From NCBI GenBank assembly GCA_040289575.1, contig PSLL01000004.1, forward strand, positions 12,228 through 25,792: a DNA stretch of 13,565 nucleotides, read 5' to 3'. Shown here piece by piece: positions 1-12,623 of this stretch. A program made the translations under genes and the position numbers. Within the stretch, counting starts at the first letter, position 1. Every line of letters starts with the position of its first letter. Below the pieces are notes generated by a model, which made no database searches, had not been told where the DNA came from, and saw only the letters and a list, made by a program, of their open reading frames with translations. The stretch comes from Candidatus Dadabacteria bacterium. GTDB taxonomy: Bacteria > Desulfobacterota_D > UBA1144 > Nemesobacterales > CSP1-2.

Positions 1-963
1 CATGCCTGTGAGGGATACGGGCTGATATGCTACTCCCTTTATAACATCATAGTTATCAATGGCGAGTTGAAGCACCCTTCCTACGTGGTGGTTATTAAGA
101 CCATTGATGACCGTATCAACAAGGATGACACTGAGTCCGACCTTTCTTGCATTCTCTATTGTCTTGAACTTATACTCAAGAAGAGGCTCCCCCCTTGTCT
201 TTTTAAATATGGCATCATCAATCCCGTCAAACTGCAGGTAGAAACTCTCAACGCCCGCCTCCTTACAGGCCTGGGCAAACTCTAAGTCAGCGGATTTAAT
301 CCCGTTTGTATTTACCTGAATGTATTCAAACCCCATATCATGCGCGGTCTTTACTATCTTCAAGAAATTGGGATGCACAGTCGGCTCCCCGCCTGAGAAT
401 TGAACCCTGTCAGATGCCACAGGTTTCTGTGTAAGGAGTGTCTCAAGCATCCTCACTACCTCATCATATGTAGGCTCATATAGATACCCGGCGGCGTTGG
501 CATTGGCAAAACATACAGGGCATGTAAGATTACATCTGTTTGTCAGGTCTATAATGGGTAGAGAGCTTACGCTCGTATGCATATTGCAGAGTCCGCAGTG
601 CTCAGGGCATACGGTAGCACTCTTTACTTTAGGATTTTCAAGCCCTCTTTGGTCTCCATACCACATCCTCTCAGCCTTGTAATACATATCCACATCTGAA
701 AAAAACAGGTCTTGAATCTCTCCATGCTCAGGGCATTCCTTTGTCATCCAAACCTTGCCGTCCTCTTCATAAAGAACGGCGGGGATGATCTTCCTACAAT
801 CAGGACAGAGCGAATCCACAGTCTTAGGCAGTCCCGTCTTAATTGGGGTTATCTCGTATCCAAAGTAGGTCGTCTTGGGTTGATCTTTCATCCACTTAAG
901 CTCCTTGTTAGCCTCCCCATTCCCGTTTCCATTTCCGTTCGACTTTTTAAATATCTCTAGCAT
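1..963 (-). CDS. Radical SAM protein, tetraether lipid synthase (Tes/GDGT-MAS, MJ0619 family) homolog; partial, 3' end lies beyond the left edge of the window
   Basis: Manual translation from ATG at 963 is open for 321 codons to position 1: MLEIFKKSNGNGNGNG...LPKTVDSLCPDCRKIIPAVLYEEDGKVWMTKECPEHG...CPEHCGLCNMH...IDLTNRCNLTCPVCFANANAAGYLYEP...VQFSGGEPTVHP...IQVNTNG...FYLQFDG...RGEPLL...AYQPVSLTGM. Motifs: rubredoxin-like C53/C56/C77/H80, auxiliary-cluster CxxxCxxCxxH (C119/C123/C126/H129), radical SAM CxxxCxxC (C144/C148/C151), GGEP. Motif order matches MJ0619 as I recall it (SLCPIC..CPEHG..CPYDCGLC..H..IDVTNRCNLNCPICFANAN..YLQFDG..QPVSFTG). Confidence 0.92.
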   Translation of the reverse strand, partial: MLEIFKKSNGNGNGNGEANKELKWMKDQPKTTYFGYEITPIKTGLPKTVDSLCPDCRKIIPAVLYEEDGKVWMTKECPEHGEIQDLFFSDVDMYYKAERMWYGDQRGLENPKVKSATVCPEHCGLCNMHTSVSSLPIIDLTNRCNLTCPVCFANANAAGYLYEPTYDEVVRMLETLLTQKPVASDRVQFSGGEPTVHPNFLKIVKTAHDMGFEYIQVNTNGIKSADLEFAQACKEAGVESFYLQFDGIDDAIFKKTRGEPLLEYKFKTIENARKVGLSVILVDTVINGLNNHHVGRVLQLAIDNYDVIKGVAYQPVSLTGM

Positions 964-967
964 AATA

Positions 968-975
968 CACCTCCT
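968..975 (-). promoter_or_regulatory. Shine-Dalgarno site of the Tes-like gene
   Basis: Minus strand reads AGGAGGTG-TATT-ATG(963). Confidence 0.85.
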
Positions 976-1094: not shown

Positions 1095-1214
1095 TAAAGT
1101 CTTTAGTAAGATACCCTAAAAATAGAAGAAAAAGCCGGATGGCATTTTTACATATAATTCTTAGCTTCTTGGACACACATATTTTTAATTTATGCCCAAA
1201 AATCAAAGAAAAAC

Positions 1215-1232
1215 TTGCACATATATGTGCAA
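1215..1232. promoter_or_regulatory. Perfect 18-bp palindrome: distal activator site and/or priA intrinsic terminator
   Basis: TTGCACATATATGTGCAA is its own reverse complement. It lies about 30 bp after the priA stop and is followed on the minus strand by GTTTTTCTTT. Confidence 0.55.
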
Positions 1233-1261
1233 AGCTATTCTACCCCATCATTATTATCTCA

Positions 1262-5171: not shown

Positions 5172-6323
5172 CTAACTCGGCTTTTCTTTTCCAGAAAGGA
5201 GTCTGTTCAGGATTTCTTTTTGTATATCCTCGATTTCAGTTTTTACTCTTGTAAGCTCATCGAGGGATTTTCCGCGTTCCCTACATTCATCAAATAGGGC
5301 GTCAACCTTTGAAAGCACATGTCTTAATTTCGTCTGAGCCTCTATATTCGCCTTAATGAGCATCTCCTCATTATCCCAGGGGCGCTTTGCGTATGATTCG
5401 AGTTCCTTTGCCTGGACGAGCAGTTCGCGCGCGCGGTCCCTATAGCCGTGAAGCGACTGATAGATTATAGACTGAATCTCCCCTCTTTCACCCGGATCTC
5501 GCCAGAGGACATTTTCGAGAATACCCAAATCGTTTTCATCAACCTCGCCCCTTCCATCAAGATAGGCTCTTGCTTTAATGAGGAGAATTGATTGTTTATA
5601 GCGTCTGTCCGAAAGTACGATCCCCTTCTTCTTGAGTTCATTTCTTATGCGTGAGATAAGCTTTATTACATGAGGCGGAATATGAACGCCCTTTGTTTGA
5701 GATTGACAATATCTGAGCTCTTCAACGGTTATAGTGGTCTTTTTTCTCTCAGCCTCATCGGTCTGTATCATTTTTATGAATCGAAAATCCTCTTTTATGT
5801 AATCCACAACATATCTGAGCAGAAACCTGTCGTATAGGGCTTCAAGCTCATCTTCTTCTGATGGGAGCTCGTTGCTTGCTCCAAAGAGCGTAATGAGAGG
5901 AACCTCAGTCGCTTCAGTACCGTTGTAGAAAACCCGCTCGTTCATAATCGTAAGAAGTGTGTTGAGTATTGAAGAACTCGCTTTAAAGATTTCATCGAGA
6001 AAGGCGATGTAGGCTTCAGGCAATTTTCCGGTTATTACTCTTCTATACTCATCGTTCTCCAACCCCTTGAGACTCACAGCGCCAAAGATCTCTTCAGGCG
6101 TAGTGAACTTTGTAAGAAGCCACTGAAAGTACTTGGCTCCAGAGACCCTTTTGCAGACCTCATGCGCAAGGAGCGATTTTGCCGTTCCTGGAGGACCAAT
6201 AAGAAGTACATGACAGCCGCATAGAAGCGCGCAAAGAGCCCCTTCTATGACCTCGTCTCTTTCAAAAAACTCTCCCCTCAATTCTTCTTTTATCTTCTTT
6301 AGATTCTCTACCGATCTTTCCAT
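5172..6323 (-). CDS. MoxR-family AAA+ ATPase, RavA-like
   Basis: 383 aa. Walker A GPPGTAKS, LLTKFTTPEEIFG, Walker B AFLDEIFKASSSILNTLL, ASNELP, ALYDRFLLR, SDRR lid motif, and a charged helical C-terminus. The start overlaps the gspK 3' end by 16 bp. Confidence 0.92.
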   Translation of the reverse strand: MERSVENLKKIKEELRGEFFERDEVIEGALCALLCGCHVLLIGPPGTAKSLLAHEVCKRVSGAKYFQWLLTKFTTPEEIFGAVSLKGLENDEYRRVITGKLPEAYIAFLDEIFKASSSILNTLLTIMNERVFYNGTEATEVPLITLFGASNELPSEEDELEALYDRFLLRYVVDYIKEDFRFIKMIQTDEAERKKTTITVEELRYCQSQTKGVHIPPHVIKLISRIRNELKKKGIVLSDRRYKQSILLIKARAYLDGRGEVDENDLGILENVLWRDPGERGEIQSIIYQSLHGYRDRARELLVQAKELESYAKRPWDNEEMLIKANIEAQTKLRHVLSKVDALFDECRERGKSLDELTRVKTEIEDIQKEILNRLLSGKEKPS

Positions 6324-7423
6324 GATATGATGTTTACTCCCTGTAAATTTTGAGAAGTTATTTTTCTTATAATCGCTCCTATGGTCTTGGTTATGGGACT
6401 TCCTTGTCCAAGGCTACCCGTAGATGTAATAGTGAACACATCGCTTTTGCCCGTGCTTAAAACAACACCACTTAAGCCCGCACTGATTGGAATTGACGGA
6501 TCGACATTCTCCGCCTGCACTATTTCGCGCACCTTTCTCTGATCAATTACGGGACTATCTTTTCTCTCATCTATCACGGCATCGGCGATGCTTTCTGCGG
6601 CGTCATCTCTGAGCTCCTCTTGAAAGGCGCTCCCTTGCCTTTGAAAAACCGGGACTGATGCACCCTTGAGTGCAGCCATCATCACGACCTTGGGAGCAGT
6701 ACTGAAATTTATCTTTTTATCCGTCGGATAAACCGTAACGTAGTCTTTAATCTTATTGAAAAAATCATCATCCATTCCACTTATCAGTCGAATTTCTTCA
6801 ACACTATCGAGCGGTCCATCTTTTATCTGATAAGGATTTTGGAGCTTCGCATAGAACTCGGCATTTGCTCCATTCGGGTCCTGGTCGTTATTTTGCTGCC
6901 CCGATATTGGATGATCAAGCCAATTGATTAGGCTCGAGATAAAACGCGAGGATTTACTACTATCTACTCCGACCATTCTGAAAAGCTCTGTAATCTCCAC
7001 AAGCACCTGACGGTCAACTTGATTCGTAATCTGATTTACAAGTGCGTTTAGGTTCACCTTTGAGCGTTCATCAGTAACCACAACGGATGCAACCCCATCT
7101 CCAACTGGGAAGAATGGAACCCTAATACTCCAGTATCCCTGGGAATTCCCACTTTGGTCGCCGAACGGGCCGGCGATTAATGTTAGATTCTCAAGAGATT
7201 CATTCTTTATTGTTCCTGCAAGCACATATACACCGGACTTTGCAATGTAATATGCTTTCATCTCATCCCTTGAATTGGCTGATATTTCCGTATTTATTTG
7301 TGTGAAATAGATGAGATCAACAACAAGAGTCGTAAGGATTGCAACTACGATAAGCACGATAATGAGTACAACGCCGCTTTCGGATTTCCTTTTTTTTCGT
7401 AGATTATTTTCTATAAAAGTCAT
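6308..7423 (-). CDS. gspK: Type II secretion minor pseudopilin GspK
   Basis: Basic leader, then SG|VVLIIVLIVVAILTTLV with no Glu5 (typical of GspK). DERSKVNLNAL, LINWLD, PLDSVEEIRLISG, KINFSTAP. Follows gspJ. Confidence 0.93.
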   Translation of the reverse strand: MTFIENNLRKKRKSESGVVLIIVLIVVAILTTLVVDLIYFTQINTEISANSRDEMKAYYIAKSGVYVLAGTIKNESLENLTLIAGPFGDQSGNSQGYWSIRVPFFPVGDGVASVVVTDERSKVNLNALVNQITNQVDRQVLVEITELFRMVGVDSSKSSRFISSLINWLDHPISGQQNNDQDPNGANAEFYAKLQNPYQIKDGPLDSVEEIRLISGMDDDFFNKIKDYVTVYPTDKKINFSTAPKVVMMAALKGASVPVFQRQGSAFQEELRDDAAESIADAVIDERKDSPVIDQRKVREIVQAENVDPSIPISAGLSGVVLSTGKSDVFTITSTGSLGQGSPITKTIGAIIRKITSQNLQGVNIISWKDR

Positions 7424-10922: not shown

Positions 10923-12623
10923 TTACATCTCATCCTCTTCCGTAACGCGCATGACTTCATCTATTGAAGTTAAGCCCTTTAGAATCTTTCCCGCACCGTC
11001 CATTCTGAGTGTAGTCATACCATGCTCAATTGCCTTTTTCTTTATCGTCGTAGAGTCCGCCGTACTCATCGTAAGGCCACGAATCTCCTCATCAACTAGG
11101 AGAATTTCAAATATCCCGCTTCTTCCGCTGTAACCCGTACCTAAACACTCATTGCAGCCCTTTGCATGATATAGCCTCCCCCCCGGAAGCTCACTTCTAT
11201 CAATATCTATTCTTCTTAGCTCATCTTCAAGCGGCGTATAAAGCTCTTTGCATGAGCTGCAGAGAAACCGGATGAGCCTTTGTGCCACAACTGCAACGAG
11301 GGAAGACGCTACAAGAAACGGTTCAATTCCCATATCTATAAGCCTCGTTATCGCGCTTGCCGAGTCGTTTGTATGGAGTGTAGAAAAAACAAGGTGGCCT
11401 GTAAGCGATGCGTGAATCGCAATATCCGCAGTTTCTCTGTCTCTGATTTCACCTACTAAAATTACATCCGGGTCTTGGCGGAGAATGGATCTCAGGCCAT
11501 TTGCAAATGTAAGATTCACCTTTGGATTTACCTGAATCTGATTTATCCCCTGAATCTGATACTCAATAGGGTCTTCAATCGTTATAATCTTTTTATCGGG
11601 AGAATTAATCCTCTCAAGAGCGGCATAAAGAGTCGTCGTTTTTCCGCTTCCTGTAGGACCGGTGACAAGAATAATTCCGTGCGGGCGATGAATGAGTGAA
11701 TTTATCGTATCGAGTTTTTTGCCCTCAAATCCCAATTCCTCCAACTCAAGGAGAACTGTAGAGCGGTCAAGGAGCCTCATCACAACGCTCTCTCCGTGTG
11801 AAGTGGGGACAGCAGATATACGGACGTCAACATCGCGCCCCGCAATCTTTACACGAATCCTTCCATCCTGGGGCTTTCTCTTCTCTGCGATATCAAGCTC
11901 AGCCATAATCTTTACCCTTGATATAATGGACGACTGGAGCCTTCTCGGAACCGCCGTCACTTTGTGGAGAATCCCGTCTTTCCTAAACCTCACTACCATA
12001 TCTTTTTCAAAGCACTCTATGTGAATGTCGCTTGCCCTCTCCTTTACCGCCTGAAAAAGGAGAGAGTTTACAAACCTGATTATCGGTGCTTCATCCTCTG
12101 CCTCAAGGAGATCTTTAGGCTCCTGAAACTCGGACTCTATAATCCCTATGGTTCCATTTTCAATCTCATCTCTCATCTCCGTTCCGCGCTCATAGACCCT
12201 ATTTATGCAGTCTATAACTACGGGGCCGAGCGCAAGAAACGGCTCTACTTCGCATCCAAAAAGAGACCTTACCTCATCAAGTGCATAGAGGTCGAGCGGC
12301 GGGGCAAAGACCACTACGATCTTCCCATCCCCTCTCTTTAATGGAATCAGTTTGAACCTTTTTGCAAAGCTTATGGGAATGAGCTTTATAAGCTCCGGAT
12401 CAATCTCCCTTTCGGATATGGCGCTTATATAAGGAATCCCATAGAATTCTGAAAGAACCTCTAGAGCCTCTCCATCGTCTAAGATCTTTGATTTCAAAAA
12501 TGCCTCTTCAAACTTTTCGCCGTTTTTATTTTTGATTATATCATCAATCTTCCCCCGTGCCTCAGGGGCCCTCTCGATTATTATCTCCTCAAGCCTCTTC
12601 ACATCAATATCCCCCTTTTTCAA
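10923..12623 (-). CDS. gspE: Type II secretion ATPase GspE
   Basis: APIIRFVN, ASDIHIE, LDIAEKRKPQDGRI, Walker A GPTGSGKTTTLY, TIEDPIEY, LRQDPDVILVGEIRD, TGHLVFSTLHTN, tetracysteine CSSC/CNEC. The start is either TTG 12623 or GTG 12602 (after GGGGGA, just past the gspD stop). Confidence 0.97.
   Translation of the reverse strand: MKKGDIDVKRLEEIIIERAPEARGKIDDIIKNKNGEKFEEAFLKSKILDDGEALEVLSEFYGIPYISAISEREIDPELIKLIPISFAKRFKLIPLKRGDGKIVVVFAPPLDLYALDEVRSLFGCEVEPFLALGPVVIDCINRVYERGTEMRDEIENGTIGIIESEFQEPKDLLEAEDEAPIIRFVNSLLFQAVKERASDIHIECFEKDMVVRFRKDGILHKVTAVPRRLQSSIISRVKIMAELDIAEKRKPQDGRIRVKIAGRDVDVRISAVPTSHGESVVMRLLDRSTVLLELEELGFEGKKLDTINSLIHRPHGIILVTGPTGSGKTTTLYAALERINSPDKKIITIEDPIEYQIQGINQIQVNPKVNLTFANGLRSILRQDPDVILVGEIRDRETADIAIHASLTGHLVFSTLHTNDSASAITRLIDMGIEPFLVASSLVAVVAQRLIRFLCSSCKELYTPLEDELRRIDIDRSELPGGRLYHAKGCNECLGTGYSGRSGIFEILLVDEEIRGLTMSTADSTTIKKKAIEHGMTTLRMDGAGKILKGLTSIDEVMRVTEEDEM

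Follow-up and report, generated by a model that had tools for sequence, protein, structure and literature searches.

A tes gene of the tetraether lipid synthase family in a Candidatus Dadabacteria genome, and candidate partner genes for membrane-spanning lipids

The DNA analyzed here is a stretch of 13,565 nucleotides from a genome of Candidatus Dadabacteria bacterium (GenBank assembly GCA_040289575.1, contig PSLL01000004.1, positions 12,228 to 25,792 of the forward strand). This whole stretch is called the window. Its nucleotides 1–963, on the minus strand, are the first 321 codons of a radical S-adenosylmethionine (SAM) gene, tes, and the remainder of the gene lies beyond the window on the same contig (G000:C126:11441-12227). 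The full-length protein encoded by tes belongs to the family of tetraether lipid synthase (Tes), whose archaeal form is GDGT-MAS (GDGT, glycerol dialkyl glycerol tetraether), and has all four metal sites. The real tes gene is intact, with a product of about 588 residues. The product of the enzyme is probably a bacterial membrane-spanning lipid, possibly ether-linked. The Tes family, its occurrence in bacteria and the Tes name of the cluster to which this protein belongs are already in public databases and are not new.

Reading frame, metal sites and lesions of the assembly

The tes frame starts with ATG at position 963 and is open at the window edge. A Shine-Dalgarno sequence, AGGAGG, is located at 970–975 (minus strand), 6 bases upstream of the ATG. 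A preliminary description of the window, made from its letters, had proposed that the ORF (open reading frame) track missed this gene; the frame is seen only if open ends are allowed, because it runs off the window. The assignment is based on the ORF, the match to PDB entry 7TOL and the match to the Tes model NF045702. The last has an E value of 1.2e-135, so it is not due to chance. Among 1.84 billion proteins searched, 421 cluster representatives match the tes protein at E ≤ 1e-30.

The three N-terminal metal sites named in the preliminary description, together with FANAN, QFxGGEPT, YLQFDG and QPVSxTG, could all be located by script, with order and spacing as described there. All are encoded on the minus strand. 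The rubredoxin-like iron site, C53-x2-C56-x20-C77-x2-H80 (CPDC-x20-CPEH, residues 53–80), corresponds to nucleotides 724–807 and is recognized by its spacing and by Pfam Zn_ribbon_HMPTM (E 9.9e-19). The N-terminal auxiliary [4Fe-4S] motif, C119-x3-C123-x2-C126-x2-H129 (CPEHCGLCNMH, residues 119–129; nucleotides 577–609), follows the pattern of GDGT-MAS, and its four residues C119, C123, C126 and H129 are invariant or nearly so in 59 sequences. The radical SAM cluster motif, C144-x3-C148-x2-C151 (CNLTCPVC, residues 144–151; nucleotides 511–534; Pfam Radical_SAM, E 1.6e-23), is followed by FANAN (residues 152–156), and then by QFSGGEPT (residues 188–195) and YLQFDG (residues 242–247). The QPVSLTG loop (residues 314–320; nucleotides 4–24) was placed by alignment with 7TOL. 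Its counterpart in GDGT-MAS is the SAM-binding loop Gln268/Ser271/Arg275, whose residues are named in a legend of PMC9433317.

Three differences from MJ0619, the GDGT-MAS of Methanocaldococcus jannaschii, had been listed in the preliminary description: LVDT, AYQP and SLPII. Alignment against the 7TOL sequence indicates that they are real. LVDT and AYQP are confined to the three Dadabacteria-type rows of a 16-row alignment. They are marks of this lineage and no signature of bacterial versus archaeal proteins.

On the contig as assembled, the tes frame passes a run of 10 N and stops at 449 codons, and the last ~140 codons are in another frame. The Tes profile was found in the genome in two pieces, at profile positions 3–386 and 385–484. 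Logan contigs from four public runs, one of which is flagged as the possible source run, were placed on the locus. The 10-N run (G000:C126:12218-12227) replaces exactly 10 bases, and the contigs of all four runs bridge it gap-free. At window base 2, the assembly has A and all four runs have C. M321, encoded by the codon at the very start of the window, should read R, as it does in the intact orthologue P0003; the conserved arginine of the loop is misread as methionine.

The frame shift is caused by a 17-base deletion in the assembly at L002 11884-11891 (G000:C126, beyond the window). The 17 bases are present in the contigs of all four runs, including the possible source run (depth 17.6 there), and DNA alignment reveals them in all four relatives. 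The gap is clean and lies between similar octamers, TTTCTCAG and TTCCTGAG in the relatives. The presence of the 17 bases in every run and every relative indicates that the natural gene is intact. P0003, which is the closest database protein, is an unbroken protein of 588 residues, and 315 of the 321 residues encoded in the window are identical to it. The five other genomes of the phylum with Tes over the cut-off all have open frames of 505–595 residues with no stops. The 17-base deletion is either an assembly collapse or a minority variant. It is quite improbable that tes is a true pseudogene in the assembled strain, with the deletion between similar octamers as a real variant. Such a reading takes the deletion as it stands in the assembly itself, while an independent contig of the possible source run and those of three other runs carry the 17 bases. 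A minority deleted form may exist, since contigs drop rare variants, and the gene of the population is intact either way.

Family placement and occurrence in the phylum

Two NCBIfam models are relevant here: the Tes equivalog NF045702, with a cut-off of 450 bits, and the TrsS model NF045646, with a cut-off of 490 bits. The broken reading of 449 residues scores 452.9 bits on NF045702 (positions 3–385), and the piece in the next frame adds 82.3 bits (positions 385–484). P0003 scores 553.5 bits and covers positions 3–484 of 486. On the TrsS model, the broken reading and P0003 reach 286.7 and 330.3 bits, respectively, both under its cut-off. PDB 7TOL matches residues 40–419 of the broken reading (E 6.9e-102), and the second-frame piece matches 7TOL 453–510 (E 5.3e-13).

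A structure model was made for P0003, not for the broken assembly reading. This AlphaFold model has a pLDDT (predicted local distance difference test) of 91.1. A Foldseek comparison with 7TOM and 7TOL gives a template modelling (TM) score of 0.90–0.91 and a root-mean-square deviation of 2.4 Å, with 38% identity over 504 columns. The next match is SkfB, with a TM score of 0.47.

The preliminary description had put the ligands of the C-terminal auxiliary cluster forward as a check, and the C-terminal half, found on the same contig, carries the relevant Met, Tyr and three invariant Cys. C53, C77, H80, C144, C148, C151, C384, C505 and C520 are invariant in the 59 sequences, and M489 is conserved at a level of at least 90%. 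Based on this invariance, C384, C505 and C520 are the putative ligands of the C-terminal cluster. The C-terminal Met (in GMHFMD) and Tyr (in CVIHY) are M489 and Y509 of P0003, equivalents of Met439 and Tyr459, and the second frame on the window's own contig encodes both as well. The old annotation mentioned in the preliminary description is still encountered: JGI names some relatives "7,8-dihydro-6-hydroxymethylpterin dimethyltransferase".

The C-terminal tail (P0003 541–588; L002 about 11441-11590) is genus-specific and ends in a Cys/His-rich stretch, GGCCGGE-x-H-x-GH. Relatives at 77–80% identity bear other C-terminal tails, and the tail has low confidence in the P0003 model.

For phylogeny, 96 of 150 representatives, all of them 430–700 residues long, were labelled by NCBIfam score, five more of that length being unscanned. 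Three representatives without a family at 1e-90 and one partial match were dropped. To these were added seven proteins of the window's phylum and the 80 named loci that scored best when species genomes were scanned, a scan in which at least 601 stretches matched. These 80 loci are the closest to the query, and more distant bacterial branches are outside the sample. A FastTree phylogeny of 179 rows agrees with a quick IQ-TREE phylogeny of 58 rows selected from them. The archaeal rows are proteins from metagenome-assembled genomes (MAGs), and the trees hold no experimentally characterized Tes.

The split between TrsS and Tes has a support of 98 with 179 rows and 100 with 58 rows. The query is on the Tes side; this answers the question of tree placement raised in the preliminary description. 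All 51 bacterial-labelled loci and both Tes types of the phylum constitute one clade (support 99), and the query is inside it. In the 58-row tree, this bacterial clade adjoins Thermoplasmatota Tes within a clade supported at 100. Among the loci sampled, the nearest neighbours of the query are proteins from Nitrospirae and Deltaproteobacteria MAGs (support 100), which are 57–58% identical to it. The named clusters outside the bacterial clade number four: three from archaea and one with a Parcubacteria label.

Two placements are worth recording on their own. P0165 scores 584 bits as Tes and is positioned outside the main bacterial clade; the members of its cluster are labelled Candidatus Parcubacteria or Minisyncoccales. 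The Tes of L077, a record labelled "archaeon", is placed among Acidobacteriota proteins (support 100); the label is probably wrong, or the binning is doubtful.

The 90% identity cluster of P0003 includes a protein of Candidatus Dadabacteria bacterium CSP1-2. The same cluster contains proteins that NCBI already names "tetraether lipid synthase Tes", under other MAG labels. Tes over the cut-off is present in 6 of 120 genomes of the phylum: all three of the window's genus, two of three of one sister genus, and one genus belonging to a second family. A divergent Tes type of ~640 residues, with 325–350 bits, is found in five further genomes, and a third type, 29% identical, in one. The searched literature, with the supplementary tables of PMC8941075 and PMC11868695 set aside, contains no report of Tes in Dadabacteria. 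A correlation study cited in PMC11868695 names Dadabacteria as possible sources of branched GDGTs (brGDGTs).

The second Tes-like type was observed in sister genera (L039 9814-11724, L040 9040-10920 and L041 9024-10997). It is about 630–660 residues long and 33–35% identical to the window's protein. It adjoins genes for an HpnB/CruG-like glycosyltransferase, an 849-residue FadD/acyltransferase fusion, a lipid-kinase-like protein and an HpnR-like B12 radical SAM protein.

Possible product and candidate partner genes

If the protein works as its M. jannaschii counterpart does, SAM would be cleaved by the CX3CX2C cluster to give the 5'-deoxyadenosyl radical. One lipid tail would lose a hydrogen of its terminal carbon to this radical, and the lipid radical so formed would be stored at the C-terminal [4Fe-4S] cluster through a carbon-sulfur bond. 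The second tail would be activated by another SAM, after which a carbon-carbon bond would join both tails. Given the lack of a GGGPS match and the ordinary acyltransferases, the substrate tails would most likely be those of bacterial glycerolipids, for example iso-branched acyl or alkyl chains. The product might then be a membrane-spanning lipid of the iso-diabolic-acid type. With the BBD reductase and the two B12 radical SAM genes described below, ether-linked, extra-methylated, brGDGT-like lipids could be made.

The window's genome is 95% complete, and absences from it are likely, not proven. PcrB/GGGPS gave no match in the genome, while the same search was positive in seven control genomes, including all four archaea. 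Fe-ADH_2 matched AroB and nothing else; AroB reaches 51 bits on the glycerol-1-phosphate dehydrogenase model, whose cut-off is 413. The genome also encodes a PlsC-type acyltransferase. These three facts make archaeol an unlikely substrate of Tes here.

A search with PF09989 found a protein of 1199 residues (G000:C28:82693-86289), in which Pfam recognizes two BcrAD_BadFG domains followed by DUF2229. This domain order is abbreviated as BBD. The BBD gene and a gene of 587 residues overlapping it by 17 bases occupy G000:C28:82693-88036 (L149 6691-12037) on the minus strand, the 587-residue gene being upstream. The product of the latter has no Pfam or NCBIfam family and no sequence match in PDB. 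Its Atlas features are only unnamed clusters auto-labelled "activator of 2-hydroxyglutaryl-CoA dehydratase". It is 68–74% identical to many proteins, some of which are labelled Acidobacteriota (Terriglobia, Blastocatellia and Pyrinomonadaceae). According to section 10 of PMC13159169, the BBD order was found in all alkyl-ether producers, and the 1199-residue protein is regarded, by its domain order alone, as a candidate PlsA/Ger-type reductase. A gene for a sigma-54 activator with GAF domains was observed divergently upstream of the pair.

A conclusion of "no Ger/PlsA", drawn from an empty search with PF06050 (HGD-D), was dropped; the Thermotoga maritima control genome, which has Ger, was also silent. 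PF07993 (NAD_binding_4) gave ten matches in frames of 223–361 residues and was positive in all 14 controls as well; no large ElbD-like fusion was seen in this search of the genome. PF10520 (CarF-type desaturase) gave no match in the genome and was silent in all controls too.

Two tandem genes for B12-binding, HpnR-like radical SAM proteins are located at G000:C126:122303-125141 (L042 5304-8142), 110 kb from tes. Their HpnR scores are 352 and 375 bits, against a cut-off of 650 for that model, and no match to hopene cyclase was obtained in the window's genome. In one sister genome, the orthologue lies next to the second Tes type and is divergently oriented. Orthologues are present in 10 of the 120 genomes of the phylum, including all six with Tes over the cut-off. 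The BBD gene is seen in six of the 120, five of which carry the window's Tes type. The scattered distributions of the BBD and B12 genes thus largely overlap that of Tes, which is suggestive only. It can be speculated, as a tentative and rather doubtful extension, that a subset of terrestrial Dadabacteria-type genomes, equipped with Tes, the BBD/587-residue pair and the HpnR-like proteins as a kit, would make brGDGT-type lipids from fatty chains by coupling, etherification and methylation.

In a look for the bacterial membrane-spanning lipid synthase Mss, a script found 26 candidate frames with CxxxCxxC in the genome. Of the 20 that were scanned, 13 belong to named families, among them RlmN, MoaA, MiaB, RimO, LipA, HemW, MqnC/E, CofH and AblA, and seven are unnamed at E 1e-40. 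G000:C126:98611-100956 matches, in several separate pieces, an 840-residue radical SAM/SPASM-ArsM fusion of a sister genus; this gene may be broken in the window's genome.

The gene tes has priA on one side; on the other lie a small ORF, glnE and a phosphodiesterase gene. Relatives down to 77% identity have priA, tes, glnE and the phosphodiesterase gene in this same order. A terminator-like hairpin after priA, at 1214–1233 (minus strand), suggests that tes has its own promoter in the spacer of 298 bases; the consensus scan found one such hairpin, and shuffled sequences gave a mean of 0.3. A second hairpin, of 16 pairs, is located after the tes stop (L002 11379-11417). Both are pattern matches only. 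With terminator-like hairpins on either side, tes appears to be transcribed alone, as a single-gene unit. A functional operon link between tes and glnE was rejected, in view of the strong terminator-like hairpin after tes and the unrelated products. The window and the spacer upstream of tes gave no match to any Rfam family.

The diderm cell envelope supposed in the preliminary description agrees with the type II secretion system (T2SS) operon with secretin in the window and with TolQ and TolA elsewhere in the genome. At 5172–7423 of the window, a bpMoxR-type AAA ATPase gene (383 residues) overlaps the end of a gspK-like T2SS gene and closes the string gspD-E-F-G-(pseudopilins)-K.

Several facts weigh against a membrane-spanning lipid as the product. 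No demonstrated activity of any bacterial Tes homologue was met in the literature searched, PMC11868695 and PMC13459092 included. In the former, Ding et al. 2025 describe bacterial Tes homologues in 281 Black Sea MAGs and call their activity unconfirmed; the latter, a 2026 review, considers bacterial Tes still bioinformatic only. Sahonero-Canavesi et al. 2022 (PMC13159169) report Tes homologues in only 3 of 14 acidobacteria that produce iso-diabolic acid, and a different enzyme, Mss, as the maker of bacterial membrane-spanning lipids. Halobacteria carry Tes homologues and have no GDGTs (PMC8941075). The three large families of the phylum have no Tes (0 of 37, 0 of 33 and 0 of 19 genomes). No lipid gene is beside tes: the BBD pair is on a different contig, and the B12 genes are at a distance of 110 kb. 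Close kin in two families, which are not independent, underlie their co-distribution with Tes. One genome with the window's Tes type has no BBD gene, the BBD-bearing genome G016 has only the 29%-identical Tes-like gene, and three genomes with the second Tes type have no B12 genes. The isolated, apparently monocistronic gene, the Halobacteria and the iso-diabolic-acid producers that have no Tes would also be expected if the protein, with its Tes fold, acted on something other than bulk membrane lipid tails. Such a substrate might be another hydrophobic metabolite, or the chemistry might be the pterin chemistry once assigned to MJ0619, and the organism would then have no membrane-spanning lipids. 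The sister family TrsS, which has the first ~310 positions in common with Tes, is indeed annotated with another, non-lipid function. We consider this reading unlikely. The match spans the whole length, including the C-terminal cluster domain, which lines the lipid pockets in GDGT-MAS, and the Met and Tyr conserved in archaeal enzymes are retained. The pterin activity was not reproducible for Lloyd et al., according to the excerpt of PMC9433317. The divergent Tes-like gene of the sister genera, moreover, stands among lipid genes.

The opposite alternative, true archaeal-type isoprenoid tetraethers or macrocyclic archaeol made in this bacterium, could draw on the sister position of the protein's clade to Thermoplasmatota Tes and on the retention of all cofactor sites. 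It is very unlikely in view of the silent PcrB/GGGPS search and of AroB as the sole Fe-ADH_2 match, CarS and DGGGPS not having been searched for. A membrane-spanning lipid built from bacterial glycerolipid tails is accordingly retained as the probable product.

brGDGTs are widely used for the reconstruction of past temperature and pH, and their makers and enzymes are only partly known. The preliminary description stated that bacterial Tes homologues have been proposed as contributors to brGDGTs. This proposal is that of Zeng et al. 2022, whose set holds 456 bacterial Tes homologues (PMC8941075). Since 2022, it has been a question whether fatty chains are coupled by bacterial Tes homologues. 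The tes gene described here adds another well-preserved candidate, and its phylum has no cultured representative in the records examined. The value added is modest and consists of the candidate partner genes; alone, the gene changes little. If the kit of Tes, BBD/587-residue pair and HpnR-like proteins does act as speculated, there would be non-acidobacterial producers of these palaeoclimate biomarkers, with a minimal gene set.

Comparison with known systems

One of the closest known systems is GDGT-MAS/Tes of M. jannaschii (MJ0619; 7TOL and 7TOM), which has four cofactors (Lloyd et al. 2022, PMC9433317). The Dadabacteria-type protein has the same four-domain layout and fold. The spacing of the rubredoxin-like site, C9X2C12X20C33X2H36 in GDGT-MAS, is identical, and the N-terminal cluster is likewise bound by three Cys (C73, C77 and C80) and a His. 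The CX3CX2C site followed by FANAN, the QPVSxTGR loop and the equivalents of Met439 and Tyr459 are also common to both.

The two proteins, however, are only 38% identical. P0003 is longer at both ends, by about 45 residues at the N-terminus, where there is an NG repeat, and by about 50 at the C-terminus; the model has low confidence for either end. The window's protein also has about 20 additional residues ahead of GMHFMD, which the bacterial-type rows share. Where a Cys precedes the labile Met in GDGT-MAS, the window's protein has a Gly. The host is a bacterium with no GGGPS match, and the substrate is probably not archaeol.

TrsS, a radical SAM (seleno)protein, resembles the window's protein in the zinc-ribbon, the N-terminal cluster and the radical SAM core, which correspond to roughly the first 310 positions. 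The window's protein is nevertheless below the TrsS cut-off of 490 bits and on the opposite side of the branch supported at 98 and 100. Mss of Thermotoga and Thermoanaerobacter is similar in its proposed chemistry, a radical SAM coupling of tails by a carbon-carbon bond. It is described as only remotely related to Tes in the excerpt of PMC13159169, and it is set apart here by that description.

The other bacterial Tes homologues, for example those of Acidobacteriota proposed for the synthesis of brGDGTs, are also among the closest known systems (Zeng et al. 2022, PMC8941075; Ding et al. 2025, PMC11868695). The window's protein is in the same clade as all 51 bacterial-labelled loci, including those of Bryobacteraceae, Solibacteraceae and Acidobacteriaceae MAGs. 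The homologues of Acidobacteriota are 47–52% identical to it, and their function is predicted likewise. Among the loci sampled, its nearest neighbours are not these acidobacterial proteins but those of the Nitrospirae and Deltaproteobacteria MAGs, at 57–58% identity.

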